Assembly: GCA_035545835.1 (NCBI GenBank)
Contig: DASZXO010000022.1
Coordinates: 1,092-65,091, forward strand
DNA: 64,000 bases
From: Lacunisphaera sp.
Lineage (GTDB): Bacteria; Verrucomicrobiota; Verrucomicrobiia; Opitutales; Opitutaceae
Reading direction: 5' to 3'
Shown: piece by piece, positions 9,158 to 34,799 of the stretch
How positions within the stretch are numbered: position 1 is the stretch's first letter
How the letters are laid out: every line of letters starts with the position of its first letter
The notes under the pieces: model-generated
Seen by the model: only the letters and a program-made list of their open reading frames with translations
Told to the model about the DNA's origin: nothing
Database searches by the model: none
Translations under genes and position numbers: made by a program

Positions 9158-10237
9158 TCACTCGTCGCCCGATTTCTCGCGGACGCGCTGGCGGAAGGCC
9201 TTCATCACCTTCTTCCACTCCTTGCGCTCGACCTGGCGGGCCTCGGGATTCACGCGGCGCACCTCGTAGGCGGCGGCGCGCTGCTGGCGCTGCCAGGCCT
9301 GCCAGCGCGCGAGTTCGAGCGAGCCGTCGGCGAGCGCCGCCTGCACCGCGCAGCCGGGTTCGACCGTGTGCGTGCAGTCGCGGAAGCGACAGCGCGCGAT
9401 GATCGACGCGACGTCGTCGAACGCCGCCTCGATGCTCGCGCCGGCCTCCCACGGCTGGATTTCGCGCATGCCGGGCGTGTCGATGACGATGTAGCCACCC
9501 GGCGCGACGATGAGCTCGCGCGTCGTCGTGGTGTGCCGGCCCTTGCGGTCGTCCCGAACCTCCTGGGTGTCCTGCACGGGTTCCCCGATGAGGCGGTTGA
9601 TCAGGGTCGATTTGCCGACGCCGGACGAGCCCAGCAGGGCGACGGTGCGCCCGGGCTGGAGGTAGGGGGCGAGGGCCTTGAGTCCGCGCCGGCTGCGGGC
9701 ACTGACCACGTGCACCGGCACGCCGCGGGCGGCCACGGCGAGCTCGGCGATGATCGCGTCGGCATCGTCGTTGAGGTCGGCCTTGTTGAGCAGGATGACC
9801 GGTTCGGCCCCGCTGGCCCACGCGGCGGCGAGGTAGCGCTCGGTCCGGTGCAACCGGTAATTGCCGTCGAGCGAGGCGACCAGGAAGACCGTGTCGATGT
9901 TGGCGGCGACGACCTGCTCGATCGTCTGGTCGCCGGCCGCCTTGCGCGAAAACCGGGTGCGGCGCGGCAACAGGCCGTGGATGATGGCGCGCGTGTCGTC
10001 GCCGGGCTGCGGCGTGACGGCCACCCAGTCGCCGATGGCGGGAAAGCCGGACGCCGTGCGCGCCTCGCGGGCGAACCGGCCCGAGCACTCGGCCAGGCGG
10101 GCGCCGGTCTCGCCCGTGACCTCGAAGAAACCCTTCAGCTCGAGCGTGACGCGCGCCGGCTGGCAGCCCTCCGCCGCCCAGGGCACGAAGGCCGACGCGA
10201 AGCCATCGCTCCAGCCGAGTTCAGCGAGCGTCATCAC
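9158..10237 (-). CDS. rsgA: Ribosome small subunit-dependent GTPase A
   Basis: NKAD precedes GSSGVGKS (circular permutation); KGRHTTT, DTPG and CRFRDCTHTVEPGC zinc finger. Confidence 0.97.
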   Translation of the reverse strand: MMTLAELGWSDGFASAFVPWAAEGCQPARVTLELKGFFEVTGETGARLAECSGRFAREARTASGFPAIGDWVAVTPQPGDDTRAIIHGLLPRRTRFSRKAAGDQTIEQVVAANIDTVFLVASLDGNYRLHRTERYLAAAWASGAEPVILLNKADLNDDADAIIAELAVAARGVPVHVVSARSRRGLKALAPYLQPGRTVALLGSSGVGKSTLINRLIGEPVQDTQEVRDDRKGRHTTTTRELIVAPGGYIVIDTPGMREIQPWEAGASIEAAFDDVASIIARCRFRDCTHTVEPGCAVQAALADGSLELARWQAWQRQQRAAAYEVRRVNPEARQVERKEWKKVMKAFRQRVREKSGDE

Positions 10238-19883: not shown

Positions 19884-20606
19884 ATGCCCCTGCCGCCCGT
19901 GCTGTACGCCGACGACGAGCTGGTCGCCCTCGACCAGCCGGGCGCGGCCCCCGGCGAAACCGCCGGCATCGGCGCGGCGGTGCGCCGGGAGTTCGGCCCG
20001 GACACGGTGGTGGCCAGCCGGCCGGACCCGGAGGCGAGCGGGGTGGTGCTTTACGCCCGCACGCGCGGGGCGCGCGATTTTCTTTCCGGCCAGTTCCAGG
20101 CGCGGACCGTGCGGCCGCGGCAGCTGGCGCTGGTGACCGGCCTGCCCGCGATGGACGCGTTCATCGCGGAATACGTGCTGAAGGACGACGAGGCCCGACC
20201 CGGGCGGCTGTGCGTGGTCAGGAAGCACGGGCAGCCGGCGCGCACGGAGTTTGCCGTGCTGGAGAGATTCCCGGCGCCGGCCGGCCGGCCCGCCTTCGCC
20301 TGCGTCGAGGCCCGGCCCGATTCCGGCCGGCCGCACCAGGTCCGCGTGCACCTGGCGACGACGGGCACGCCGGTGCTGAACGACGCGGCCTATGGCAACG
20401 ACACCCGGCTGCTGCTCTCGGGCCTCAAGCGCGGGTACAAGGGGCGCGCCGACGAGCGGCCGCTCATCGCCCGCCTGGCGCTCCACACCGCGGCGCTCAC
20501 CTTCCGGCACCCGCGCACCCGCGAGCTCCAGACCGTCGAGGCGCCGCTGCCGCACGATTTCGCCGTCGCGCTCAAGTACCTGCGCAGATTCGTGTCGCCC
20601 GGTTGA
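19884..20606 (+). CDS. RluA-family pseudouridine synthase-like protein with degenerate motifs
   Basis: SRPDPEASG (canonical HRLDxxTSG), SGRPHQVRVH, NDAAYG and LALHTAALTFRHP. Confidence 0.8.
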   Translation: MPLPPVLYADDELVALDQPGAAPGETAGIGAAVRREFGPDTVVASRPDPEASGVVLYARTRGARDFLSGQFQARTVRPRQLALVTGLPAMDAFIAEYVLKDDEARPGRLCVVRKHGQPARTEFAVLERFPAPAGRPAFACVEARPDSGRPHQVRVHLATTGTPVLNDAAYGNDTRLLLSGLKRGYKGRADERPLIARLALHTAALTFRHPRTRELQTVEAPLPHDFAVALKYLRRFVSPG

Positions 20607-20675
20607 GCGCGGGCCCAGACCTTGGCTTTACTTCGCGACGGGAGGCCGGTTGTCTTGCGCCAATCAAACGACCCC

Positions 20676-22676
20676 ATGAGTGAAAAACCTCCGGTGACCC
20701 ACACCGTTGATGCCGACGGCGTCGGCTGGATCAGCTTCGACGACCCGGCCAGCCGGGCCAACATCTTCAACCCGGCGACGCAGGCCGCCCTGGGCGGCGT
20801 GGTGACCGCGCTGGCCGCGCAACCGTTGAAGGCGGTCGTGGTCGTGAGCGCGAAGGAACGCATCTTCATCGCCGGGGCGGACCTGAAATGGCTGGCGCAG
20901 CTGCCCGATCCGGCGGCGGCCAAGCAGGCCGCGCGCGCCGGCCAGGAACTGTTCGCGCGGCTCGGCGCCCTCAAGGTGCCGGTGGTGTGCGCCATCCACG
21001 GCGCCTGCGCCGGCGGCGGCTACGAGCTGGCGCTGGCTTGCCACTGGCGCATCGCGAGCGACGCGAAGGAGACGGTCATCGGCCTGCCCGAGGTCGGCCT
21101 GGGCCTGATCCCCGGCTGGGGCGGCTGCGTGCGGCTGCCGCGGCTCGTCGGCGCGCCGGCGGCCGTGGCCCACATCCTGAAGGCCGCGCTGGTGCCCGCG
21201 ACCGAGGCCCTCGCCGCGGGGCTGGTCGACGAACTTGCGCCCGCCGCCGAGCTGAAGGCCCGTGCCCGGGCCGCCGCGCTCCGTCTCGCCGCCGAGGGCC
21301 CGCCGCGCCGGGCGGAGCCGCCGGCCGCGCCCGCGGACTTCTTCCCCGCGCAACGCAAGGCCGTGCTCACCCGCCAGCGCCACCAGCCCGCGCCGCTGGC
21401 CGTGCTCGACGCCGTCGAGCAGACCGCCGGCCTGCCGCTGGCGCCCGCCCTTGACCTCGAGGCGGCGCTGTTCGGCCGCATCGCCACCGGCGAGATCGCG
21501 CGCAACCTGCTGCACGTGCACTTTCTCAAGGACGCGGCGAAGAAGGCCACGCTCGACCCCTGGTTTCCCGGCACGCCCGCCGCGCCGAAGCTGGCGCCGT
21601 TTCGCACCGTCGGCATCGTCGGCGCCGGCGTGATGGGCTCGGGCATCGCGCACTGGTGCGCACTGCACGGGCTCGGGGTCATCCTGTGCGACGAGAAGCG
21701 CGAGGCGCTCGAGCACGGCGTCGAGGTGATCCGCGGGCTGTTCCGCGACGCGGTGAAGCGCGGGAAGCTCACGCACGAGGCCGCGCACAAGATGACCGGC
21801 GGCATCGGCATCACGACCAGCCTCGAGGATTTCGAGATCTGCGACCTGATCATCGAGGCCGTGGTCGAGAACGTGGAGGTAAAGCGCCAGGTGTTCGCCG
21901 CGCTGAGCAAGGTCGCGGCCCCGGACTGCGTGCTGGCCTCGAACACCTCGGCGCTGCCGATCGAGGAGCTGGCGTCCACGGCGACGAACCCCGGCCGCGT
22001 CGTCGGCCTGCATTTCTTCAACCCGGTCGGGCGCATGCCGCTGGTCGAGCTGGTCCTGAGCCCGCACACCGCGCGCGAGACGGCCGACCGCGCGCTCGCG
22101 TTCGTGCGGGCGCTGGGCAAGACGGCGGTCGTCTGCCGGTCCGCGCCGGGCTTCCTCGTCACGCGCGTGCTGTTCTTCTACCTGAACGAGGCCTGCCGGC
22201 TCTGGGAGGAGGGCGTGCCGGCGGCGGCGATCGACGGCGCGATGCGCGACTGGGGCTGGCCCATGGGCCCGCTGCGGCTCATCGACGAGGTCGGCCTCGA
22301 CGTGTCGGATTTCATCTACGGCGAGATGCAGCACTATTACCCGGACCGCTTCACGCCGACCGCGGTGTGCGGCCGGCTCCTCGGGGCGGGCCAGCGCGGG
22401 CGCAAGAACGGCGCGAGCGCGGGCTTCTACACCTATGCGGACGGGCGCGAGGAGCCGAACCCCGCGTTGGAGCCGTTCACGCCCATTCCCCCGATGCAGC
22501 TGGAAGCGGCGGCGATCCAGGAGCGGCTCAACGGCGTCATGATCGCCGAGACCCGGCGCGTGCTGGCCGAGGGCGTGCTGCAGTCGGCCGACGAGGCCGA
22601 CCTGGCGCTGCTGCTCGGCGCGGGCTTTCCCGCCTGGCGCGGCGGCCTGCTGCACCTGGCCGGCGCGAAAGCATGA
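20676..22676 (+). CDS. fadJ: Fatty acid oxidation multifunctional enzyme (enoyl-CoA hydratase / 3-hydroxyacyl-CoA dehydrogenase), FadJ-like
   Basis: GGGYELAL and LPEVGLGLIPGWGG hydratase motifs; GAGVMG, SNTSALPI, GLHFFNPV and PMGP dehydrogenase motifs. Start ATG 20676. Confidence 0.9.
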   Translation: MSEKPPVTHTVDADGVGWISFDDPASRANIFNPATQAALGGVVTALAAQPLKAVVVVSAKERIFIAGADLKWLAQLPDPAAAKQAARAGQELFARLGALKVPVVCAIHGACAGGGYELALACHWRIASDAKETVIGLPEVGLGLIPGWGGCVRLPRLVGAPAAVAHILKAALVPATEALAAGLVDELAPAAELKARARAAALRLAAEGPPRRAEPPAAPADFFPAQRKAVLTRQRHQPAPLAVLDAVEQTAGLPLAPALDLEAALFGRIATGEIARNLLHVHFLKDAAKKATLDPWFPGTPAAPKLAPFRTVGIVGAGVMGSGIAHWCALHGLGVILCDEKREALEHGVEVIRGLFRDAVKRGKLTHEAAHKMTGGIGITTSLEDFEICDLIIEAVVENVEVKRQVFAALSKVAAPDCVLASNTSALPIEELASTATNPGRVVGLHFFNPVGRMPLVELVLSPHTARETADRALAFVRALGKTAVVCRSAPGFLVTRVLFFYLNEACRLWEEGVPAAAIDGAMRDWGWPMGPLRLIDEVGLDVSDFIYGEMQHYYPDRFTPTAVCGRLLGAGQRGRKNGASAGFYTYADGREEPNPALEPFTPIPPMQLEAAAIQERLNGVMIAETRRVLAEGVLQSADEADLALLLGAGFPAWRGGLLHLAGAKA

Positions 22677-22822
22677 AGATTTACGCCGGCGGACGCGCGC
22701 CGCGGAAGCCGTTGCCGGACTAGGCCAAACGAGTGAATCCTCCCGCGGCGGTCGCGGCCGGCTGGCGAAATGCATTGCCGTGGGACACGGTTTTGGGACG
22801 TAATCGCGCCGAGTTCCACGCC

Positions 22823-25800
22823 ATGGCCACCGCCACGACCCTGAACAAAGAACAGAAGCGGCACCTGCTGCTGACGATGCTGGAGAGCCGCCTCGGCGAC
22901 CTGCGCGAGGAGAGCCTGAACCGCCAGGGCAAGGGTCACTTTCACGTCTCGGGCCGCGGGCACGAGGCGTTGTGCGCCCTCGGCGCGCAGCTGCGCGACA
23001 GCGATTACCTGGTGCCGTATTATCGCGACCGCGGGCTGTGCCTGGGGCGCGGCCTGACGACCAAGTACCTCGCCCTGGAATATTTCTCGAAGCGCGACTC
23101 GGCCTCGCGCGGCCGGATGATGCCCTCGCACTACTGTTCGCGGGAGCACAACATCGTGAGCGTGCCGACGCCGACCGGGTCGCAGCTCCTGCCGGCGTGC
23201 GGCATCGCCTGGGGCCTGCAGCTCGACCAGAAGGATGGCGTCGTCGTCACCTGCATCGGCGACGCGGCCACCCGCCAGGGCGACTTCTACGAGGCGCTGG
23301 CCTTTGCCCAGGAAAGGAAGCTGCCGCTGCTCGTGGTCGTCGAGGACAACGCCTACGGCATCTCGACGCCGACGCGGAAGACCAACCCGCTGGCGCTGGC
23401 CGTGCTCAACCAGGCGCAGTGGGTCGAGGTTGACGGCGCCAACGCCGAGGCCGTGCACGCCGCGTCGCGCCAGGCGCTCGCGGAGCTGCGCGAGGGCCGC
23501 GGCCCGGTGTTCCTGTGGGTGCGGGTCGAACGGCTGTCGAGCCACACGAGTTCGGACGACCACAGCCTGTACCGTTCGAAGGAGGACCTGGCGGCGCTCG
23601 AGCAGGCCGACCCGATTCGCAACCTGAAGCTGCGGATGATCCAGGACGGCGAGCTGACCGAGGCGGAGTTCGCCGCCCTCGAGGCGGAGCTCAAGGAAAA
23701 GGTGCGCCGGGACTACGCCGCCGCCGAACAGGCCGAGAACCCGCGCGCCGACGAGCTGATGCTCGAGACGCTCGCACCCTCGCCGGAGCTGAACGAGGAA
23801 CTCTTTCCCGCCGGCAAGTACCGGATGGGCGACCTGATCAACCGCACGCTGCGCGCCGGGCTCGATGCCGACCCGGGCCGCATCATCTTCGGCGAGGACG
23901 TCGAGGACCCGAAGGGCGGGGTGTTCCGGCTGACCCAGAAGCTCACGACGGATTTTCCCGGCCAGGTGTTCAATTCCCCGCTGGCGGAGTCGACCATCGT
24001 CGGCCTCGCGGGCGGGCTGGCGCTGTACGGCCGCCGGCCGGTCTTCGAGATCCAGTTCATCGATTTCATCTTTCCCGGCTTCAACCAGCTCGTCTCCAAC
24101 CTCGCCAACCTCCGCTGGCGCACGAACGGCGAGTGGAAGGTACCCGCGGTCATCTACGCCCCGTATGGCGCGTACCTGCCCGGCGGCGGGCTGTGGCACT
24201 CGCAGGCCAACGAGGCGGCGTTTGCGCACTTTCCGGGCATCAATGTCGTCGTGCCGAGCACGCCCGAGGACGCCGCCGGCCTGCTCTGGACGGCGATGCA
24301 CGCGGAGGACCTCGTGCTTTTCCTCCTGCCCAAGCACATGCTGTGGGCGGAGCGCGCGGTGGCGGAGCCGGTGATGTCGGTGCCGCTCGGCGTCGCGCGC
24401 CGCTGCCTCGAGGGCACCGACCTCACGCTCGTCGCCTGGGGCAACACGATGGAGAAGGCGTACGAGGCCATCGCCCAGCTGAAGGGCGAGGTCGGCGTCG
24501 ACCTGATCGACCTGCGCTCGATCGTGCCCTGGGACAAGGCGCTGGTTGAGGAGTCCGTCCGCCAGACCGGCCGGCTGGTCGTCGTGCAGGAGGACACGGA
24601 GAATTGCTCCGTCGGCCAGATGATCATCACGCACGTCATGGGCCAGCCCGACTTGTGGGCGGGGATGAAGGCCCCGCCGGTGCTCGTGTCGAAGGGCAAC
24701 GTGATGATCGGCTACAACCCGATCTACGAATATGCCGCGCTGCCGGACACGCCGCGGATCGTCGACGCCATCTGGCGCACGGTGTCGGTGCACCACGCGC
24801 ATGACGAGTCCATGGCCTCGAGCGTCGCGCCGATGCCGGTCGCGCCGGCCGCGGCGCCCGCCCCGGCCGAGGGCCACGCGCCGCAGAACACCGTGATCGC
24901 CGGGACCAGCGACATCATCGTCCGCGTGCCGATCATGGGCGAGGGCCTGCGCTCGGCGCGCGTGGTCTCGCTCAACAAGAAGCCCGGCGATCCCGTGCAG
25001 CACGACGACGTGCTCTGCGAGGTCGAGACCGACAAGGCGGTTTACCCGATCGAGGCTTCCTTCGCCGGCCAGCTCAAGGAATGGCGCATCCAGCTCGATG
25101 ACACCGTGCTCATCGGCCAGGACATCGCGGTCGTCACCGGCGATGCCGCCAGCGTCGCGGCCCTGCCGGTGGAGGGCGCCGCGCCCGCGGCCACGGTGGC
25201 CAAACCGGCCGCGGTCGCCCCGGCCCGATCGGGCGCCGGGTCCGACCCCGCGAAGGCGGGGACCAACCCCGCCGTGCCGGCAAAGATTTCCAACTCCCCC
25301 GGTCCCATGAAAGGCAACACCCGTCCGCCCGCCCTGCACCCGGCCATCACCAAGCGGCTCGATGCCGTCGTCCCCGCCACCATGCTCATGGATGTCCGCT
25401 GGGAAAACCTGCGGCTGGCCCGGGAGGAGGCGAAGAAGAAATTCGGCCAGAATGCACCGTCGCCCTCGGCGATGATGGCGTGGTGCATCGTGCGGACCCA
25501 GGAGAAGCACGCGGCCTTCCGCTGCGTCGTCAATCGCGAGGGCGCGATCCTGGAGCAGGCCGACTTCGAATGTGGCGTGGCCGTCGCGCTCGACGGCGAC
25601 CGCCTCGCGACGGCCGCAATCCCGGCCGCCAACCGCCTCGGCTGGGCCGATTTCGTCGCGGCCTACCACCGGGCCGTGGAGGAGACCCGCGCCGGCCGCC
25701 TGATCGACGTGCAGGCGCCGATGAACATCACCAGCCTCGGCGCGTTCGGCGTCGAGAGCGCGACGCCGATCGTGGTGCCGCCGGCCATGGCGACGATCTT

Positions 25801-25969
25801 CCTTGGCTCGGCGCACGAGCGCCTGATCAACGACGGCGGCGTGATCCATCCCGCCGAGGTCATCACGCTCTCGCTGACATTTGACCACAAGGTCGTCAAT
25901 GGCGCCGGCGCCGCCTCCTTCATGCGCGACCTGCGCGTGGAGCTGGAGGGCTTCCGGCTGCCCGGGTGA
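22823..25969 (+). CDS. Single-chain 2-oxoacid dehydrogenase: E1alpha + E1beta + lipoyl domain + E2 acyltransferase core (branched-chain type likely)
   Basis: GDAATRQGDFYE...EDNAY TPP motif; RLSSHTSSDD; FGEDV..GGVFR, SPLAES and GLWHSQ; ETDKA lipoyl lysine; TFDHKVVNG E2 catalytic motif; one uninterrupted frame. Start ATG 22823. Confidence 0.92.
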   Translation: MATATTLNKEQKRHLLLTMLESRLGDLREESLNRQGKGHFHVSGRGHEALCALGAQLRDSDYLVPYYRDRGLCLGRGLTTKYLALEYFSKRDSASRGRMMPSHYCSREHNIVSVPTPTGSQLLPACGIAWGLQLDQKDGVVVTCIGDAATRQGDFYEALAFAQERKLPLLVVVEDNAYGISTPTRKTNPLALAVLNQAQWVEVDGANAEAVHAASRQALAELREGRGPVFLWVRVERLSSHTSSDDHSLYRSKEDLAALEQADPIRNLKLRMIQDGELTEAEFAALEAELKEKVRRDYAAAEQAENPRADELMLETLAPSPELNEELFPAGKYRMGDLINRTLRAGLDADPGRIIFGEDVEDPKGGVFRLTQKLTTDFPGQVFNSPLAESTIVGLAGGLALYGRRPVFEIQFIDFIFPGFNQLVSNLANLRWRTNGEWKVPAVIYAPYGAYLPGGGLWHSQANEAAFAHFPGINVVVPSTPEDAAGLLWTAMHAEDLVLFLLPKHMLWAERAVAEPVMSVPLGVARRCLEGTDLTLVAWGNTMEKAYEAIAQLKGEVGVDLIDLRSIVPWDKALVEESVRQTGRLVVVQEDTENCSVGQMIITHVMGQPDLWAGMKAPPVLVSKGNVMIGYNPIYEYAALPDTPRIVDAIWRTVSVHHAHDESMASSVAPMPVAPAAAPAPAEGHAPQNTVIAGTSDIIVRVPIMGEGLRSARVVSLNKKPGDPVQHDDVLCEVETDKAVYPIEASFAGQLKEWRIQLDDTVLIGQDIAVVTGDAASVAALPVEGAAPAATVAKPAAVAPARSGAGSDPAKAGTNPAVPAKISNSPGPMKGNTRPPALHPAITKRLDAVVPATMLMDVRWENLRLAREEAKKKFGQNAPSPSAMMAWCIVRTQEKHAAFRCVVNREGAILEQADFECGVAVALDGDRLATAAIPAANRLGWADFVAAYHRAVEETRAGRLIDVQAPMNITSLGAFGVESATPIVVPPAMATIFLGSAHERLINDGGVIHPAEVITLSLTFDHKVVNGAGAASFMRDLRVELEGFRLPG

Positions 25970-26004
25970 GCCGGGTTGGTGCGGTTGAAGGCGGGACCTG
26001 CCGG

Positions 26005-26078
26005 GTGGAGGCGGGACGCCCGCGTGCCGCGGGTTGCCATTCGTGCTTGCTCCTCGCGGGGTGAGGGCACCCCGCCGC
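26005..26078 (+). repeat. REPIN-like family A copy
   Basis: GTGGAGGCGGGACGCCC...CCTCGCGGGGTGAGGGCACCCCGCC. Confidence 0.85.
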
Positions 26079-26230
26079 CGGCTCCCGACGGCATGGATTA
26101 TTTACGCTGGCACGCGGATCTTGCGAAGAATCCCGCATCGCCCGGCGGCGGCGATACTCAGGCTCGCTTTTGGACCGCGGCTGCGTATGGTCTGCGGCTC
26201 GGGACAGGGCCGGTCCCGAACCCACGCTGC

Positions 26231-27361
26231 ATGACCAGCCCCTCCCATTCCACGCCGGTGACGAACCCGCTGCGGCAAGCCTTGAAGATCCTGGTGATCG
26301 AGGACGACGCCCGCTGGCGGACGCTGATCGAAATCCAGCTGCAATCGGCGGGACACACGGTCCTCACCGCCGCCGACGGCCTGGCCGGCCTCGCGCTGGC
26401 GACCGAGAAGCCCGACGTGATCCTGTGCGACGTGGAGATGCCGCGGCTCAACGGCTACGGCGTGCTCGAGGCGCTGCACCAGCAGCCGGGCCTGAGCGAA
26501 ATCCCGTTCATCTTCCTGACCGGGCGCACCGCCCGGGCCGAACAGCGCAAGGGCATGGTGCTCGGCGCCGACGATTTCATCACCAAGCCGTTCCAGCCGG
26601 AGGAACTCCTGGCGAGCATCCGCACCGTCCTGGCCAAGCGGCAGTCGCTCGCGCAGCGCCTCCACGCGTACACGGAGGAGCACCAGCGCGAGATCACCGC
26701 GCCGTGGGCGCATGAGCTCCTGACGCCGCTCAATGGCATCCTCGGCATGGCCGCCATGCTGGAAGCGGAGCCGGGGATGATCTCGCCGCTGGATTTGCGC
26801 GAGATGGCCCGGTCCATCCGGCAATGCGCGCGCCGCCAGCAGGCGCTCGCGCACAAGCTCGTCCGCCACTTCCAGCTCGAGCAATTCCGGCAGACCGGCT
26901 GGAGCGATTCCGCCGCGGAGGCGGAGGCGGCCGCGTGCCTCGAGGACGAGTTGCTCGGCGTGGCCGAACAGGCTGGCCGTCCTTCCGACCTGCAGCTGCG
27001 GTGCGAGGAAGCGCTGGTGCGCATCAGCCCCGCCTGGCTGCGGGTGGCCGTGGCGGAGCTGGCCGAAAATGCCTTCAAGTTCTCGGCGCCCGGCGCGCCC
27101 GTCACGGTGACGGCGGGCGAGGTCGAGGGCCTCTATCGCATCGAGGTCGAGGACCGCGGGCCCGGCATGGGCGACCGCGAGCGGGCCGGCATCGGCGCCT
27201 TCCGGCAGTTCGGCCGCGCGCAACATGAGCAACAGGGGCTCGGCCTCGGGTTGTCGACGGTGCGCAGCATCGCGCAGTTGCACCGCGGCACCCTCGAACT
27301 GCAGCCGGGCACGGGAGGGTTCGGCCTGCGCGCCATCCTCGCGTTGCCGCTGGTGGAGTGA
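26231..27361 (+). CDS. Hybrid response regulator / histidine kinase (REC-HisKA-HATPase)
   Basis: ILVIEDD, ILCDVEMP, FITKPF; H-box HELLTPL; N-box ELAENAFKFS; VEDRGPGM and GLGLGL. Start ATG 26231 or GTG 26258. Confidence 0.92.
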   Translation: MTSPSHSTPVTNPLRQALKILVIEDDARWRTLIEIQLQSAGHTVLTAADGLAGLALATEKPDVILCDVEMPRLNGYGVLEALHQQPGLSEIPFIFLTGRTARAEQRKGMVLGADDFITKPFQPEELLASIRTVLAKRQSLAQRLHAYTEEHQREITAPWAHELLTPLNGILGMAAMLEAEPGMISPLDLREMARSIRQCARRQQALAHKLVRHFQLEQFRQTGWSDSAAEAEAAACLEDELLGVAEQAGRPSDLQLRCEEALVRISPAWLRVAVAELAENAFKFSAPGAPVTVTAGEVEGLYRIEVEDRGPGMGDRERAGIGAFRQFGRAQHEQQGLGLGLSTVRSIAQLHRGTLELQPGTGGFGLRAILALPLVE

Positions 27362-27407
27362 GCTGATCGGGTGGAGCCCGCGCTCCATGAGGACTGAATG
27401 CCGCCTG

Positions 27408-27484
27408 GTGGAGGCGGGACGCCCTCGTCCCGCGGGATGCAATTCGCGCTGCTGCCTCGCGGGGTGAGGACACCCCGCCTCCCA
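27408..27484 (+). repeat. REPIN-like family A copy
   Basis: GTGGAGGCGGGACGCCCTCGTCCCGCGGG...CCTCGCGGGGTGAGGACACCCCGCCTCCC. Confidence 0.85.
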
Positions 27485-27538
27485 GCGTGGCCAACCCGCG
27501 CGGAGTGAAGGTTCCGCCGCCAGCCCAGCCGCGCGCCG

Positions 27539-28081
27539 CTACCGCGGCAGCCCGGCTTCGCGTGCGACCCGCCGCAACGGCTCGTCCTGCGGGTAGATCT
27601 GCAGGAACTGTTGCAGGAAAAGGTCGGTGGCCGGGCTGAAGTTGGCGTGGTTCACCTCGACGCCGTCGCGGCTGACGAGCACGACGTGGCAGAGGAAGCA
27701 GAAGTCGCAGGTCACCACGTCGGCGCCGTGGTGGAAACGGAGCCGCAGGTAGAGCGACGGCCGCCGGCCGCCGTGCGCCCGCCAGTCGTAGGTCTTTTCA
27801 TCCAGCAGCAGGTCGCGCAGCGCCCCGGCGACGGGCGCCGGCACGACCGTGAACGTCGTGTCCTCGTAGCGCTCGGTCTTCCAGTCGATCCGCCCGTCGG
27901 GCAGCTCGGCGGCGGGAATGTGCCTGAGCAGGCAGCTGTCCACCCGGTCGGCGGTGCGGACGATGCCGAGGTTTTCGGGCGAGCCAAAGAGGCGGGCGAC
28001 ATCCTCCGGGTGGTCGGCGGCGGGCGCGGCGCCGACGCCGAGCAGGGCCGACAGGGAAATGAGGGAACGCTTCATGATCAT
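27539..28081 (-). CDS. Hypothetical secreted protein with CxxCxxC (CDFCFLC) motif
   Basis: Signal peptide MIMKRSLISLSALLGVGAAPA; start overlaps the mutase stop (ATGA at 28081-28078). Confidence 0.7.
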   Translation of the reverse strand: MIMKRSLISLSALLGVGAAPAADHPEDVARLFGSPENLGIVRTADRVDSCLLRHIPAAELPDGRIDWKTERYEDTTFTVVPAPVAGALRDLLLDEKTYDWRAHGGRRPSLYLRLRFHHGADVVTCDFCFLCHVVLVSRDGVEVNHANFSPATDLFLQQFLQIYPQDEPLRRVAREAGLPR

Positions 28082-29823
28082 ACCATGGGCCGGAATTTTC
28101 CGACGATGCCGGTGAGACAGGCGGTGATCTGGCCGAGGGAGCACACTTCCACCGTCGACACGAGCTCGGCGAAGACGTTCCCACCGCCGCGCACGACGTT
28201 CTCCAGGCGCTGCAGCGCGGCGGGCGCCTGCTTCGCATGCCGGCGCTTGAAGGCGCGCAACCGTTCGACCTGCAGGCGCTGCCGGCGCGGCGGGGTGCGG
28301 GCCAGCGGGACATGCGGCATCGGCTCATCCGTCTTGTAGCGGTTGAGGCCGATGATGGGCCGGGCGCCGCCGTAGACCTGCTCCTCGTAGGCGTGGCCGG
28401 CCTCCTGGATCTTGCTGCGCTGGTAGCGCTGCTCCTGCGCGGCGAGCACGCCGCCGAGCGTGTCCATCTCGCGGAACACGTCGAGGATCGCCTTCTCCAC
28501 CTGCTGCTCGAGGACGAGCAGGCCGGGCGCGCCGCCGAACATGTTCATCATGTGTTTGAACACGCCGGACTCCTCGAGGATGATCGACTGGCCGTGCGAG
28601 GCGAGCGTGGCGTATTTCTCCGTCGGCGTCGTGAACGGCTCGTCCGCGGAGTTGGAGTGGCACGAGTTCGTGTAGTTGAGGTAGGCGAGCATCAGCTCGA
28701 CCGCCGTGCGCGTGAGGTTGTTCTGGAACTCGGCGGCGATCAGCGAGCGGCCGGAGGTCTGCGTGTGGAGCTTGAGCAGCTGCGCCTTGCTGGAGGCGCC
28801 GAAGACGTCGCGCATGCCGATGGCCCAGAGGCGCCGGGCCACGCGGCCGAGCACGAGGTATTCGACGTCGAGCCCGCAATCGAGGAAGAACGACAGGCGC
28901 GGGCCGAACTGGTTGACGTCGGCGCCGCGCTGCTTGAGCAGCTCGACGTAGGTGAAGCCGTTGGCCAGCGTGAAGGCGGCCTGCTGCACCGGCGTCGCCC
29001 CGGCCTCGGCGATGTGGTAGCCGGAGATCGAGACGGGGTACCAGCGCGGCAGGTTCGGCACGCACCACTCGATCATGTCGCAGAGGAACCGCAGCGACGC
29101 CTCGATCGGGAAGATGACCTCGTTCTGCGCCTGCACTTCCTTCAGCATGTCGGCCTGGATCGTCCCGCGGAGCTGGGCGAGGCAGCCCGGCCCGAACCGG
29201 CGCTTCGCGGCGGCGATGAACATCGCGAGGATGACCGGCGCCGGCGCGTTCATGGTCATCGAGACGGACGCATCCTTCCGCGTGAGGTCGAAGCCGGCGA
29301 AGAGCCGGGCCATGTCCTCGACGGTGTCGATGGCCACGCCGCCCTCGCCAACCTTGCCGAGCACGCCTGGGTGGTCGGAATCGAGGCCGTAGAGCGTGGG
29401 CCCGTCGAAGGCCGTCGAAAGCCGCAGGCTCTTCTGGTGCGAGCTGAGGTAGTGAAAGCGCTTGTTGGTGTCCTCGGCCAGCCCGAGCCCGGCGAACAGC
29501 CGCATCGGCTCCTCGCCGGCGCCGCTGTCGCGGTCGAGATACATCTCGCGGTAGGCGGCGTTGGCGTAGGGGAACTCGCCCGGCAGGCCCTGGCCGAGGA
29601 GGTAGCTGGCGATGACGCCCGGGTCGTCGGTCTGGGGCAGGGCGAGGCGCGGCAGCGGCGTGCCCGTGGGCGACACGGTCCAGTCGATCGACTCGTGGAT
29701 TTGGGCCCAGCGCTCGCGGAGCTCGGCAGCGAAGCGGGTGTCGGTGCGCGCACGGGCCACCTCGGCGGTGACATGCGCGTTGTAGGCGTCGACGGCGTCG
29801 GCGATGCGTCCGAGCTGGCTCAT
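28078..29823 (-). CDS. B12-dependent acyl-CoA mutase substrate-binding subunit (C-terminal half of split IcmF, isobutyryl-CoA mutase type)
   Basis: PMRLFAG, RLSTAFD, QADMLKEVQAQN, ISGYHIAEAGA, LSFF and HTQTSGRSL; no B12-binding domain at the C-terminus. Confidence 0.9.
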   Translation of the reverse strand: MSQLGRIADAVDAYNAHVTAEVARARTDTRFAAELRERWAQIHESIDWTVSPTGTPLPRLALPQTDDPGVIASYLLGQGLPGEFPYANAAYREMYLDRDSGAGEEPMRLFAGLGLAEDTNKRFHYLSSHQKSLRLSTAFDGPTLYGLDSDHPGVLGKVGEGGVAIDTVEDMARLFAGFDLTRKDASVSMTMNAPAPVILAMFIAAAKRRFGPGCLAQLRGTIQADMLKEVQAQNEVIFPIEASLRFLCDMIEWCVPNLPRWYPVSISGYHIAEAGATPVQQAAFTLANGFTYVELLKQRGADVNQFGPRLSFFLDCGLDVEYLVLGRVARRLWAIGMRDVFGASSKAQLLKLHTQTSGRSLIAAEFQNNLTRTAVELMLAYLNYTNSCHSNSADEPFTTPTEKYATLASHGQSIILEESGVFKHMMNMFGGAPGLLVLEQQVEKAILDVFREMDTLGGVLAAQEQRYQRSKIQEAGHAYEEQVYGGARPIIGLNRYKTDEPMPHVPLARTPPRRQRLQVERLRAFKRRHAKQAPAALQRLENVVRGGGNVFAELVSTVEVCSLGQITACLTGIVGKFRPMV

Positions 29824-31031
29824 GCGGTCACCTCCATCCAGCAGGCCTTGTCGCCGCCGGTGGACGGGGCGAGGCCGCCCCGCTGCGCGAGCGCGTCAAA
29901 GAGGGCGTCCACGCCCGGGTCGAAGTGCCGCGCGGCGGTGGTCGGGTAAAGCCGGCGGCCCTTGCCGTCCTGGTCCAGCCGCGCCTGGATCTCGGCGCGG
30001 GCCGTGTGCGCCATCGGGTGGTCGCACTTGTTCAGCGCGACGAAATCGGCGCCCGCCAGCAGCGCGATCTTCTGCAGCTGGATGCGGCCGCCGTAATGCG
30101 GCGGCAGGACGAAGAGCGTGGCATCGACCAGCGGTGGCCCGCGGCCGAAGGTGCGGAACGGATCGCTTTCCTGGCCGACACCGACGGACTCGACGAGGAC
30201 CAGGTCGAACTCGCCGGCCTCGCGCAGGATCCCGATGGCCGCGGGCGCCGCGGCCGACAGGCCGGTGAGGCTGCCGCGCGTCGCGAGCGAGCGGAAGAAC
30301 ACGCGGTCGTCCTGGGCGTAGATGGCGGAGACGCGGTCGCCGAGGATGGCGCCGCCGGAGTCGGGATGCGACGGGTCGTTGGCCAGGATCGCGATGCGGC
30401 CGCCGGGGCAGCGCCGGAGAAAGCGGGACACGAGTTCGTCGATCAGCGTCGATTTTCCGGCGCCCCCGGGTCCGGCCACGCCGAGGACAAAAGCGCGCGA
30501 AGCGCGCTTCAGGTGTGAGGCCGGAGGTTTGAGGGGGGAGGGGTTCGACTCCGCCAGCGTGATGGCGCGGGCGAGGGCGCGGTCGCCCGTGAAGCGGGCG
30601 TTCGGCCGGCCCGGGCGCGCATAGTCGCGCTTGATGGTGGCCATGATCTCCGCGAGCGGCGTGCCGGCGAAGAAGATGCGGTCGGTGCCCTGCCGCTTCA
30701 TCACGCGCTCGTCAGCCGGCGTGATCGTGCCGCCCCCGCCGCCGAAGACGGGGATGTCGCCGCCGCCGCGCTGCCTGAGCTGGGCGACGACCTCCCGGAA
30801 GAAGACGATGTGGCCGCCGTTGTACGAGCTGAGGCCGACGACGTTGACGTCCTCCTGCACCGCCGCGCGGACGATGGCGGACACGGGCTGGTGATAGCCG
30901 AGGTAGATGACCTCGATGCCGTGGCTGGCGAGCTCAAGGTTGATCGTGGTCACGGCGCTGTCGTGGCCGTCACAGAGCGGCACGGCCGTCAGGATGCGCA
31001 CGGGGGCGGGGGCGTGGGAACGGGCGGACAT
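29820..31031 (-). CDS. Cobalamin-binding domain + MeaB/ArgK-type GTPase chaperone (N-terminal half of split IcmF)
   Basis: CDGHDSAV (DxHxxG-like), [41 protein letters not shown] and NKCD. Start ATG 31031. Confidence 0.9.
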
Positions 31032-31159
31032 TCCGGCGAAGCGAATCCGAGAATGGCGCCGGGCGCAATGGCCGAGGGAGCCCGCGGGGGGCGAATTCCT
31101 CCCTTGGGAGTAGGGGACAACTCGGTCGACAGCCGGCTCCGGCCCGGCATGATGGGCCC

Positions 31160-32113
31160 ATGCACTTTCGCGACCTGAACGAGGCACAGCTCCTCGCGGT
31201 GGCCATCGGCGCCGAGGAGGAGGATGCGCACATCTACCGGGACTTCGCCGCCTCGCTGGAGGCGGAATTCCCCGCCTCGGCCGAGCTCTTCCGGCGGATG
31301 GCGGAAGAGGAGTCGAACCACCGCCACCGGCTCATCGAGGCCTACCGCCGGAAATTCGGCGAACACATCCCGCTGATCCGGCGGCAGGACGTGAAGGGTT
31401 TTCTCGTGCGGCGGCCGTCCTGGCTGGCGCGCACGCTCCGGCCGGAGACGGCGCGCGGGGAGGTGGCGTTGATGGAACTCGAGGCGCGGCGCTTCTACGA
31501 GGCGGCGGCGGCCCGGAGCACGGATGCCGCCATCCGCCAGCTGCTGGGCGACCTCGCGCAGGAGGAGCAGAAGCACGAGGCCACGGCCGAGCTGGTCGGC
31601 GGCGCGCAGGAAGCGTCCGGGCAACTGCACGAGGAACGGCTGGCCGCGCGCCGGATGTTCGTGCTGCGTTTCGTGCAACCGGGCCTGGCCGGGCTGATGG
31701 ACGGATCGGTCTCGACGCTCGCGCCGCTGTTTGCCGCGGCCTTCGCCACCGGCAACACGTCCGAGACCTTCAAGGTCGGCCTGGCTGCGTCGGTCGGCGC
31801 CGGCATCAGCATGGGCTTCGCCGAGGCGCTGTCCGACGACGGCAAGCTCAGCGGACGCGGCGCGCCCTGGCTGCGCGGCGTGGTCTGCGGCCTGATGACC
31901 ACGCTCGGCGGCATCGGGCACACGCTGCCCTATCTCATCCGCAACTTCCACACCGCGACGTCGGTGGCGATCGCGGTGGTGGTGGTCGAGCTCGGCGTGA
32001 TCGCCTGGATCCGCAAGCGCTACATGGACACGCCGCTGCTGGCGGCGATCTCCCAGGTGGTGGTGGGCGGCGTGCTCGTGTTCATCGCCGGCTGGCTGAT
32101 TGGCGCCGGGTGA
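31160..32113 (+). CDS. mbfA: Rubrerythrin-VIT1/CCC1 fusion iron exporter
   Basis: EEED..IY and [10 protein letters not shown] ferritin-like motifs; [23 protein letters not shown] and [14 protein letters not shown]. Confidence 0.93.
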
Positions 32114-32203: not shown

Positions 32204-33316
32204 TCAAATCGGCAGCGTGACCTCGACCGTCGTGCCGTGACCCGGCTCGCTCTGGATGCGGAGCTGGCCGCCGAGGCGCTGGACGATGCGGCGCGACAGG
32301 GCCAGGCCGAGGCCGAGGCCCTGCTGCTCGAATTTCTTGCGGTCGTGCTGCTGGAAGAGCCCGAGTTGCTGCAGCTGTTTCGGCGTCATGCCGCGACCGG
32401 CGTCCTGCACGGTGAGGCGCGCGTTCGTGCCCTCGGCGCGAAGCCGGACGGCGACGGGCGATTCCTTGCGCGAGAAGGCGAGGGCGTTGTCGGTGAGCTC
32501 CTCGACGAGCGCGGTGAATTCGGTCGGGCCGCAGCGCAGGCGCATCGGGGCGAGCTCGACCTTGACGTCGGCGGTGCGCGCATGGCGCTCGGCGGTGGCC
32601 TTGACGCCGGCGTGGAACGCCTCGGCGACCTGCTGGGCCTCGAGCCACGGCACCGGGGGCCGGCCGGGCGCGTCGAGCTGGATGATGTGGAGGTAATTCC
32701 GCAGCGTGCGATGCAGGCGCCGCGCGGAAACGAGGATGTCGCGCAGGATCGCGCGGACCTCGTCCTTGCCGAGGTCGTCCAATTCCTCCTCGAGCATCTC
32801 GGTCAGGCCGAACACGCCGGCCAGCGGGGTGAAGAACTCGTGCGGCAGGGTTGCGTGCAGGCTGGCGCGGAGCTGTTCGATCACGCGGTTCTCGAGGTGG
32901 CGGCTGACCTCGGCGCGCTTGAGGCGGGCGGCGACGGCGCGGGTGAGGTCGCCGATCGAAAACGGCTTGAGGAGGAAATCGTCGGCCCCGAGCTCCATGC
33001 CGGCCCGCGGGTTGGCGTACGCCGGGTCGCCCGTCATCAGGATGAACTGGCGGTCGGCCAGCTCCGGGTCGAGCCGGAGCTGCTTGAGGTAGCCCTTGCC
33101 GTCGACGCCGGGCATGTCGATGTCGCACACGATCACGTCGGGCAGGTAGGCCCGCGCCAGTTCGCCGCCCTGCACCGTGTCGGAGGCCCCGAGCACCTGG
33201 TAGCCATGGGCCTCGAGGCCCTCGACCAGCACGGGCCGGAGACGGACATCGTCGTCGATCAGCAGCACGGTCTTGAGGCTGGCGCCGGGGACGGGCGAGA
33301 GGGGTGACTCGGACAT
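32204..33316 (-). CDS. Hybrid response regulator / histidine kinase (REC-HisKA-HATPase), paralogue of 26231..27361
   Basis: VLLIDDD, IVCDIDMP, FLLKPF; H-box HEFFTPL; ELTDNALAFS, VQDAGRGM and GLGLGL. Start ATG 33316. Confidence 0.92.
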   Translation of the reverse strand: MSESPLSPVPGASLKTVLLIDDDVRLRPVLVEGLEAHGYQVLGASDTVQGGELARAYLPDVIVCDIDMPGVDGKGYLKQLRLDPELADRQFILMTGDPAYANPRAGMELGADDFLLKPFSIGDLTRAVAARLKRAEVSRHLENRVIEQLRASLHATLPHEFFTPLAGVFGLTEMLEEELDDLGKDEVRAILRDILVSARRLHRTLRNYLHIIQLDAPGRPPVPWLEAQQVAEAFHAGVKATAERHARTADVKVELAPMRLRCGPTEFTALVEELTDNALAFSRKESPVAVRLRAEGTNARLTVQDAGRGMTPKQLQQLGLFQQHDRKKFEQQGLGLGLALSRRIVQRLGGQLRIQSEPGHGTTVEVTLPI

Positions 33317-33401
33317 ACCAGCGGCGAGCCTGACATTTCGCCGGGAGCTGGCAATGCTTCTAACCAAGGCATGACGGCGAGCCGCCGATGCGGCCCGCCG
33401 C

Positions 33402-34799
<1,398 letters not shown>

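Follow-up and report, generated by a model that had tools for sequence, protein, structure and literature searches.

A single gene at 22823..25969 on the forward strand of a Lacunisphaera sp. contig encodes a 1048-aa protein with the layout of an entire 2-oxoacid dehydrogenase short of its lipoamide dehydrogenase (E3). The contig stretch analysed here (64,000 nt, positions 1,092 to 65,091 of DASZXO010000022.1 in assembly GCA_035545835.1) is called the window. The frame is open on the plus strand over 22733-25969 (1078 codons), with the stop codon at 25967-25969, and the ATG at 22823 is the start both in the database protein (P0004, 1048 aa, 100% identity) and in the family consensus. Within this one frame there are five Pfam domains, every one scoring far over its curated cut-off: E1_dh (residues 19-308 in the 1048-aa numbering, 1e-50), Transket_pyr (334-506, 2e-26), Transketolase_C (525-644, 2e-22), Biotin_lipoyl (700-770, 9e-15) and 2-oxoacid_dh (846-1042, 1.5e-28, 100 bits). 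The resulting order is E1alpha, E1beta, ~34 disordered residues, a lipoyl domain (LD), ~56 disordered residues and an E2 acyltransferase core, hereafter E1ab-LD-E2. An earlier sequence-only reading of the window had claimed these four parts in one polypeptide; the five in-frame domains confirm it, and the gene coordinates and every motif it named are found where it had placed them: GDAATRQ at 23258, HTSSDD at 23543-23560, PLAEST at 23978, LWHSQ at 24191, ETDKA at 25025-25039, ITSLGAF at 25727 and DHKVVNG at 25883-25903. The long open reading frames (ORFs) on the antisense strand are what a G+C content of 70% usually gives rise to, and a promoter and terminator scan of 20300-28300 returned nothing exceeding chance.

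The whole-chain AlphaFold2 model, with a mean predicted local distance difference test (pLDDT) of 77, has three folded modules parted by two segments of pLDDT <50 (residues 659-687 and 786-833). A fold search with the whole model matched separate parts only, and the best solved chain covers it with a query-normalised template-modelling score (TMq) of <=0.45.

The source genome is a 105-contig draft, and the sequence-only reading had allowed for an assembly error. The fusion could in principle be an artefact of assembly or annotation, or a decaying pseudogene uniting separate E1 and E2 genes. Among 5.8 billion proteins searched, however, there were at least 120 homologues, and the 120 listed are 1029-1082 aa long and 72-100% identical, with the five identical Pfam domains in all. 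There are more than 120 full-length homologues in the Opitutaceae; named sources are Lacunisphaera, Opitutus sp. GAS368, Oleiharenicola lentus and Didemnitutus, and several sequences lie on Mb-scale contigs, one of which is labelled a chromosome. Scanning a single genome for each species confirmed more than 577 candidate stretches, and 80 loci were kept. All 80 encode a matching protein, 74 of them spanning residue <=7 to >=1044 and six being partial, and they take in Chthoniobacterales, "Spartobacteria" and Udaeobacter at 56-60% identity. Because the intact frame recurs across independent assemblies with active-site residues that are invariant in every domain, an assembly error is effectively refuted, and we regard an artefact of any of these kinds as having a negligible chance of being the explanation. 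The gene is real and encodes an uninterrupted single-chain E1ab-LD-E2 protein.

The layout extends well beyond the family of the host. Of 201 Verrucomicrobiota genomes sampled, 44 had a match to the E1 module at E<=1e-100, and none had more than one. Eleven of these 44 matched end-to-end, 16 were frames of ~1013-1057 aa that matched through the lipoyl domain, with an E2 part too diverged for one alignment, and the rest were longer frames. A second search, seeded with a distant member, retrieved a large Planctomycetota clade and members from Methylacidiphilales with identical domains. The single-chain layout appears to be the usual form in several Verrucomicrobiota orders and in many Planctomycetota.

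Catalytic modules and lipoyl arm

The E1alpha module spans 22877..23746 on the plus strand (Pfam E1_dh, residues 19-308) and the E1beta module 23822..24754, also on the plus strand (Transket_pyr 334-506 and Transketolase_C 525-644). Conservation was assessed in an alignment of 31 members, the most distant of them at 36% identity. The thiamine diphosphate (ThDP) motif of E1alpha, G146-D147-A148 ... E174-D175-N176, is invariant in this set, as are H241, S243, D245 and D246 of the H241-T-S-S-D-D loop (23543-23560) and, in E1beta, E389 (PLAEST) and H459 (LWHSQ). We take E389 to be the catalytic Glu of the beta part that activates N1' of ThDP, and H241, in the phosphorylation-type loop of the alpha part, and H459 of the beta part to be the active-site His residues; the HTSSDD loop resembles that of branched-chain 2-oxoacid dehydrogenase (BCKDH). 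In a phmmer search of PDB sequences, E1alpha matched 1UM9_A at 1.9e-39 and E1beta matched 1UM9_B at 2e-61. Foldseek searches with the AlphaFold2 model gave target-normalised template-modelling scores (TMt) of 0.86 for E1beta against the T. thermophilus E1b 1UM9_B and 0.77 for E1alpha against 1UMB_A. The closest solved E1 is therefore the branched-chain E1 of T. thermophilus, and the pyruvate dehydrogenase (PDH) E1 of G. stearothermophilus scores nearly as high. By its motifs, its catalytic residues and its predicted fold, the N-terminal module is an E1 of the alpha/beta type.

The lipoyl domain lies at 24890..25147 (+, residues 690-775; Pfam Biotin_lipoyl) and is modelled by AlphaFold2 as a beta-barrel at pLDDT 92-98. 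The predicted lipoyl-lysine is K738 (codon 25034-25036), within ETDKA, and both E735 and K738 are invariant among the 31 members. Genes for lipoylation occur elsewhere in the genome, namely lipA (354 bits) and genes of the LplA/LipB type. The domain is flanked by two linkers. Linker 1 (24788..24889, +, residues 656-689) is Ala/Pro-rich and predicted to be disordered, with pLDDT <50 at residues 659-687. Linker 2 (25148..25315, +, residues 776-831), also with pLDDT <50, sits where canonical E2 proteins have their peripheral subunit-binding domain (PSBD). In a 30-sequence alignment of the LD-E2 part, linker 2 is gappy, rich in Ala, Pro and Ser and widely different in length, and it has no conserved block.

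The E2 acyltransferase catalytic domain occupies 25316..25966 (+, residues 832-1048), with codons at 25733-25735 for S971, 25886-25888 for H1022 and 25898-25900 for N1026. Among the 31 members, D1021, H1022, N1026 and G1027 are invariant, and S971 of ITSLG is at least 90% conserved. The possibility of an inactive E2 domain, which the sequence-only reading had entertained, is thus not borne out in the aligned members. That reading had also compared DHKVVNG with a canonical DHRxxDG. The motif and its kept His stood; the Asn, which it had taken as a departure, is found family-wide, in 26 of 26 diverse members where the motif was found (P0131, missed by the regular expression, reads DHRWITG), and in the E2 of the PDH complex (E2p) of A. 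vinelandii. The latter (1EAA) is the best solved sequence match of the E2 core (3.6e-10, ~24% identity) and reads DHRVINGA. The titles of PDB entries 1DPB-D name roles of Ser558, His610 and Asn614 in this enzyme, and N1026 is the equivalent of Asn614. Since the active A. vinelandii E2p carries this Asn, DHKVVNG represents a known functional active-site variant, and we rejected the idea that having N in place of the D of DHxxxDG inactivates the enzyme.

An AlphaFold2 model of the LD-linker-E2 part has a mean pLDDT of 85, with the E2 domain mostly at 84-97 and two 10-residue blocks at 71 and 79. In Foldseek comparisons with E2 cores of the 2-oxoglutarate (E2o), pyruvate (E2p) and branched-chain (E2b) complexes, the modelled core gave TMt values of 0.72-0.83 and root-mean-square deviations of 2.1-4.6 Å at ~20-24% identity. 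Judged from sequence and model, the E2 domain is real but divergent, with a chloramphenicol acetyltransferase-like (CAT-like) predicted fold and the His/Ser active site.

In canonical cores the C-terminal tail of E2 forms an inter-trimer "knob". The tail past the last helix has ~6 residues (GFRLPG) in the Opitutaceae and Chthoniobacterales orthologues and follows the pattern F-x-[LI]-P, in which F1044 is invariant and L1046 and P1047 are at least 90% conserved. The A. vinelandii E2p (1EAA, 1DPB-D) has the same DH-x-x-x-N-G form of the motif, whereas its tail has one residue more and is the more hydrophobic of the two (IRAILL compared with FRLPG here), and it is part of an LD3-PSBD-core E2 that forms a 24-mer. 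The tail of the fused protein is without the actinobacterial-type 3-residue Phe insertion; a Phe-containing insertion of this kind confines the actinobacterial E2p to trimers (10.1101/2020.07.24.212647).

Missing docking domain and supply of E3

The 2-oxoacid dehydrogenase complexes are textbook multi-enzyme assemblies, built on an E2 core whose PSBD serves as the dock for E1 and E3. None of the 31 members has a PSBD (Pfam E3_binding, PF02817), and no E3_binding match at E<=1 was found in the linker-LD-linker stretch (residues 656-859). The identical search scored the PSBD at 49-57 bits in three of three canonical E2 proteins of the same genome, so the absence of an E1/E3-binding domain asserted by the sequence-only reading is borne out. 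We considered whether HPAITKRL might be left over from a PSBD and rejected this, since in the alignment it belongs to the arm at the N-terminal end of the E2 catalytic domain, where the pattern PAL-x-PAIT-[KR]-[KR]-L is conserved.

The claim that no E3 gene lies nearby held as well. There was no match to a lipoamide dehydrogenase on the window's contig (C22), and none of the 80 related loci has an E3 gene in its flanks, which extend 6 kb at most. Elsewhere in the genome two lpdA genes exceed the curated cut-off, one on contig C26 (C26:7671-9098), adjoining sucA-sucB, and one on contig C24 (C24:40363-41793). The sequence-only reading had called the route of E3 recruitment unknown, and here the lack of a PSBD stood, but precedents for such a route exist. 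The H protein of the glycine cleavage system is re-oxidised by free E3. Eukaryotic E2o is also without a PSBD and uses the adaptor MRPS36 for E3 (PMC9974300). In that protein the PSBD is likewise replaced by an Ala/Pro-rich disordered linker (PMC9974300), and with such a linker in place of the PSBD, both the eukaryotic E2o and the fused protein need another way of recruiting E3. The eukaryotic 2-oxoglutarate dehydrogenase (OGDH) complex differs in having a separate E1o and a known adaptor, MRPS36/KGD4 (PMC9974300); none was seen adjoining this gene.

Another potential consequence of the missing PSBD is that the protein is not autonomous and instead docks, in the manner of actinobacterial OdhA, on a canonical PDH or OGDH E2 core of the cell, sharing its PSBD-bound E3. 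The genome would offer the partners, with three PSBD-bearing canonical E2 proteins and two E3 proteins, and OdhA provides the precedent (PMC10415282). However, the fused protein has its own lipoyl domain, which OdhA does not, and its linkers are without a conserved docking element. In solved E1-PSBD complexes (1W85), moreover, the C-terminus of E1beta helps to bind the PSBD, and here that C-terminus runs on into linker 1. We therefore consider docking on another complex improbable, though it deserves more weight than an artefact of assembly.

Relatives, gene neighbourhood and substrate

The evolutionary setting was examined in an E1-only tree of 115 sequences, built by a quick search and supported by SH-aLRT values only. 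Every fusion protein belongs to a single clade (support 100). Among the Verrucomicrobiota-type E2 fusions, 16 of 18 are placed together in a group (98) that also holds two E1-only rows, and the remaining two, P0130 and P0134, branch close by in the same clade, which has a support of 99. The E2 fusions of the Planctomycetota type make up a separate group (99), sister to a large clade (97) in which a FabH-like beta-ketoacyl-ACP synthase III (KAS III) replaces the E2 core. E1alpha-beta fusions that end after E1beta and need a separate PSBD-bearing E2 (named "2-oxoisovalerate dehydrogenase E1 component" by JGI) share the same alpha-beta fusion and lie inside and around the clade; the genome studied here has two of them, at C26:13747-15711 and C15:53515-55701.

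The KAS III fusions occur in other Verrucomicrobiota families, where the frames are 1115-1339 aa long, and in cyanobacteria and others. Examples are L031 (G017:C27), L032, L033, L035, L036, P0148 and P0158, the last annotated as "beta-ketoacyl-ACP synthase 3" in Anthocerotibacter panamensis. They share a homologous E1ab-LD module, while their C-terminal acceptor is a condensing enzyme and not an E2 CoA-acyltransferase. This suggests that in them the lipoyl arm hands starter units directly to the condensing enzyme. Other relatives carry further parts. P0134 (L039, from a TARA metagenome) adds an acyl carrier protein (ACP) in the order E1ab-LD-E2-ACP, and P0166 (1942 aa) reads E1ab-LD-KAS III-ketoreductase-ACP. 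The 2895-aa P0229, laid out as (truncated E1)-LD-E2-ACP-ketosynthase-methyltransferase-...-Condensation-AMP-binding, is an oxoacid-dehydrogenase "loading module" heading a polyketide synthase/non-ribosomal peptide synthetase (PKS/NRPS). With E2, KAS III, ACP and PKS/NRPS parts found among relatives, the E1ab-lipoyl cassette looks portable, with interchangeable acyl acceptors. A separate oddity is P0327 (1204 aa), which belongs to the Planctomycetota-type clade and matches the lipoyl domain twice. Its recorded source is a eukaryote, Anaeramoeba ignava, which could reflect horizontal transfer or DNA of a symbiont or contaminant.

These relatives raise the question of whether CoA is the acceptor at all. 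The E2 domain might hand its acyl group to the phosphopantetheine of an ACP, or the main role of the protein might be to supply branched starter units for lipid synthesis rather than to serve catabolism. The E2-ACP layouts of P0134 and P0229, the exchange of E2 for KAS III in the sister lineage and the restriction to at most one match per sampled genome at E<=1e-100 are in keeping with such a role. Yet neither this protein nor its Opitutaceae and Chthoniobacterales orthologues have an ACP domain, and the conserved neighbours act on acyl-CoA. The either/or occurrence of E2 and KAS III fusions follows taxonomy and is therefore not independent evidence. We see a transfer to ACP, or a chiefly lipid-synthetic role, as quite unlikely, somewhat more so than docking on another complex.

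The neighbours in question lie on both sides of the gene. Upstream, 146 nt away on the same strand, a gene at 20622..22676 (+, start codon provisional) encodes a FadB-like enoyl-CoA hydratase/3-hydroxyacyl-CoA dehydrogenase (Pfam ECH_1, 3HCDH_N and 3HCDH). Of the 80 related loci, 29 have a fadB gene immediately upstream in this orientation, as does L038; none of the 29 is titled Chthoniobacterales or Spartobacteria. Downstream and convergent, at 28078..31187 (-), Pfam domains identify a split IcmF-like acyl-CoA mutase, consisting of a barrel gene (28078-29823, -) and a gene for the B12-binding domain and MeaB GTPase (29820-31187, -) that overlap by 4 nt. The mutase gene is downstream and convergent in nine related loci, and directly adjacent in L043. 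In the complete genome of Lacunisphaera limnophila (L037, CP016094) the upstream FadB-like gene is reduced to a 211-aa ORF at 9303-9938 with 3HCDH_N only, and no icm gene lies close by, so that even among the Opitutaceae not every member has the fadB/icm context. The gene context of distant members is uninformative.

The window holds other genes around the cluster. Two hybrids of receiver domain, HisKA and HATPase_c without a sensor domain lie at ~26231-27361 (+) and 32204-33463 (-); the former comes after the dehydrogenase gene, and is near it in 10 related loci too. The gene at 31160-32113 (+) joins a rubrerythrin domain to a VIT1-type membrane domain of the vacuolar iron transporter family.

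The remaining complexes of the genome also bear on the substrate. They are an OGDH-like sucA-sucB-lpd set on C26, a pdhA/B/C-like set on C29, the lone E1ab fusion on C26 and a complex on C15. Since these look like OGDH, PDH and prp-cluster complexes, no canonical BCKDH E2 remains in the genome. The C15 complex (C15:53515-60759) has a layout of its own. An E1alpha-beta fusion (728 aa) is followed by a 700-aa fusion of a PEP-mutase/isocitrate-lyase-type (PrpB-like) domain with citrate synthase, then by a PrpD-like gene (assigned by eye) and a PSBD-bearing E2. The cluster may be a 2-oxobutyrate/propionyl-CoA-methylcitrate module.

The closest solved E1 (T. thermophilus E1b), the fadB/icm neighbours and the functions assigned to the other complexes make a branched-chain or short 2-oxoacid the most likely substrate, with a branched-chain one as the probable choice. 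The acyl-CoA product would then be passed on to the FadB-like enzyme and the IcmF-like isobutyryl/butyryl-CoA mutase encoded nearby, in a route from 2-oxoisovalerate, or a related oxoacid, through isobutyryl-CoA and butyryl-CoA to beta-oxidation. The same machine could nevertheless act on pyruvate, 2-oxobutyrate or another short 2-oxoacid instead. The top NCBIfam matches are PDH E1alpha and E1beta models, all below cut-off, the G. stearothermophilus PDH E1 scores near the BCKDH E1 proteins, and it is an E2p that the E2 core matches best in sequence. Against such a substrate, a PDH-like set (C29) and a prp-cluster complex (C15) are already in the genome, the best E1 match is to T. thermophilus E1b, and the SDD-type loop, the IcmF-like mutase and FadB fit isobutyryl/butyryl-CoA chemistry. 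A non-branched substrate is on balance unlikely, while remaining the most serious of the competing explanations.

Taken with the conserved residues of every module, these observations make it probable, in our judgement, that the protein is a functional, self-contained, acyl-CoA-forming 2-oxoacid dehydrogenase chain, probably for branched-chain substrates, that is re-oxidised by E3 in trans. Several findings weigh against this interpretation. The E2 domain is very divergent, at 100 bits against Pfam compared with 270-280 bits for the canonical E2 proteins of the genome, and is only ~20-24% identical to solved cores. The below-cut-off PDH matches in NCBIfam do not favour a branched-chain substrate, and similarity of the E1 sequence cannot tell BCKDH from Gram-positive-type PDH. 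The fadB and icm genes are within the flanks of none of the Chthoniobacterales-titled loci; L100, the one Chthoniobacterales locus examined in detail, has unrelated neighbours. An acyl-CoA dehydrogenase was looked for beside the gene and none was found. Finally, because some relatives carry ACP, PKS or KAS III parts, there may be members that use an acceptor other than CoA.

Assembly, known complexes and meaning

The sequence-only reading knew of no characterised protein with all four parts, and allowed that one might exist. Our literature searches found no paper on a single-chain E1ab-LD-E2 protein, PDB sequence and fold searches found no chain of this layout, and no characterised family of such architecture came to light. 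Database names are generic ("thiamine pyrophosphate-dependent enzyme" or "2-oxoisovalerate dehydrogenase E1 component"). The identity of the group as an E1ab-LD-E2 family and its status as uncharacterised are thus supported.

The nearest comparison is with BCKDH and the Gram-positive-type PDH (1UM9, 1W85, human 1DTW). The fused protein shares with them the E1 alpha/beta fold, the catalytic residues, the lipoyl domain, the CAT-like E2 core and the His/Ser active site, and equal chemistry is expected. There, however, E1alpha, E1beta and E2 each form a chain of their own, and the PSBD is the docking site of E1 and E3; here all but E3 is in one chain, with no PSBD and a highly divergent E2. To our knowledge, actinobacterial OdhA is the only studied E1-E2 fusion among the exceptions to the canonical assembly, and it altered views on how these complexes are built. 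This "two-in-one" enzyme, OdhA/KGD, likewise has E1 and E2 activities on one polypeptide, but in the order E2o then E1o, with a homodimeric sucA-type E1 and no lipoyl domain, so that it borrows the arms of E2p (PMC10415282; PDB 8P5V). The protein described here has the order E1ab-LD-E2, an alpha/beta-type E1, its own lipoyl domain and long, predicted-disordered linkers. We considered an E2-E1 fusion of the OdhA/KGD type and rejected it on the order of modules, the type of E1 and the lipoyl domain; OdhA chains appear as weak partial matches.

What the analysis shows directly is the domain content, the conservation, the folds, the missing PSBD, the gene context and the distribution; the activity, the substrate, the oligomeric state and the route to E3 are inferred, and each step of the mechanism below is drawn from homology. 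The E1alpha-beta module, expected to form an alpha2beta2-like homodimer, would decarboxylate the 2-oxoacid with ThDP and reductively acylate the lipoyl group on K738 of the lipoyl domain tethered ~34 residues behind. The acylated arm would then swing on the ~56-residue linker to the C-terminal E2 domain, an expected trimer, where H1022, S971 and N1026 would pass the acyl group to CoA. Re-oxidation of the dihydrolipoyl arm would take place in trans, by a lipoamide dehydrogenase encoded on C26 or C24, and without a PSBD the contact with E3 could be made by transient encounter or via an adaptor. The layout can be pictured as a canonical E2 (LD-PSBD-core) with the PSBD deleted and E1ab fused to its N-terminus, so that the covalent tether may stand in for the E1-docking job that the PSBD has in BCKDH and in Gram-positive PDH.

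How such chains assemble is a matter of symmetry. The sequence-only reading had seen a conflict between a 2-fold E1 and a 3-fold E2. The two symmetries are still expected, but the conflict is softer than claimed: because the two linkers are long and, by prediction, disordered, the two-fold symmetry of E1 and the three-fold symmetry of E2 would be decoupled, and their variable lengths point to a flexible tether. OdhA differs in this respect, with its E2o and E1o packed rigidly into a D3 hexamer (PMC10415282). Possible assemblies of the fused protein are a hexamer, a canonical 24-mer core (cube) with tethered E1 dimers, or an open network.

More tentatively, and with rather less than even confidence, these features could be read together as an autonomous "three-in-one" architecture without a PSBD, with a non-canonical particle, re-oxidation by free E3 and a portable E1ab-lipoyl loading cassette. 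Obligate E1 dimerisation and E2 trimerisation of a single chain, with a shortened C-terminal knob, might then build a D3 hexamer or a small closed cage rather than a 24- or 60-mer with docked satellites, and E3 would act undocked, as in the glycine cleavage system. The "2-oxoacid loading module" would have been plugged by evolution onto E2, KAS III, ACP and PKS/NRPS acceptors.

The family joins E1alpha, E1beta, the swinging arm and E2, and dispenses with the docking domain. It offers a one-gene system in which to probe whether active-site coupling needs a giant core, how E3 serves an arm that has no PSBD beside it, and how symmetry-mismatched modules assemble on one chain. A route from 2-oxoacid to acyl-CoA that takes one gene, plus E3, could also serve metabolic engineering. 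In this genome, the protein is likely to be the entry enzyme of a compact branched-chain route, together with FadB and the B12-dependent mutase.

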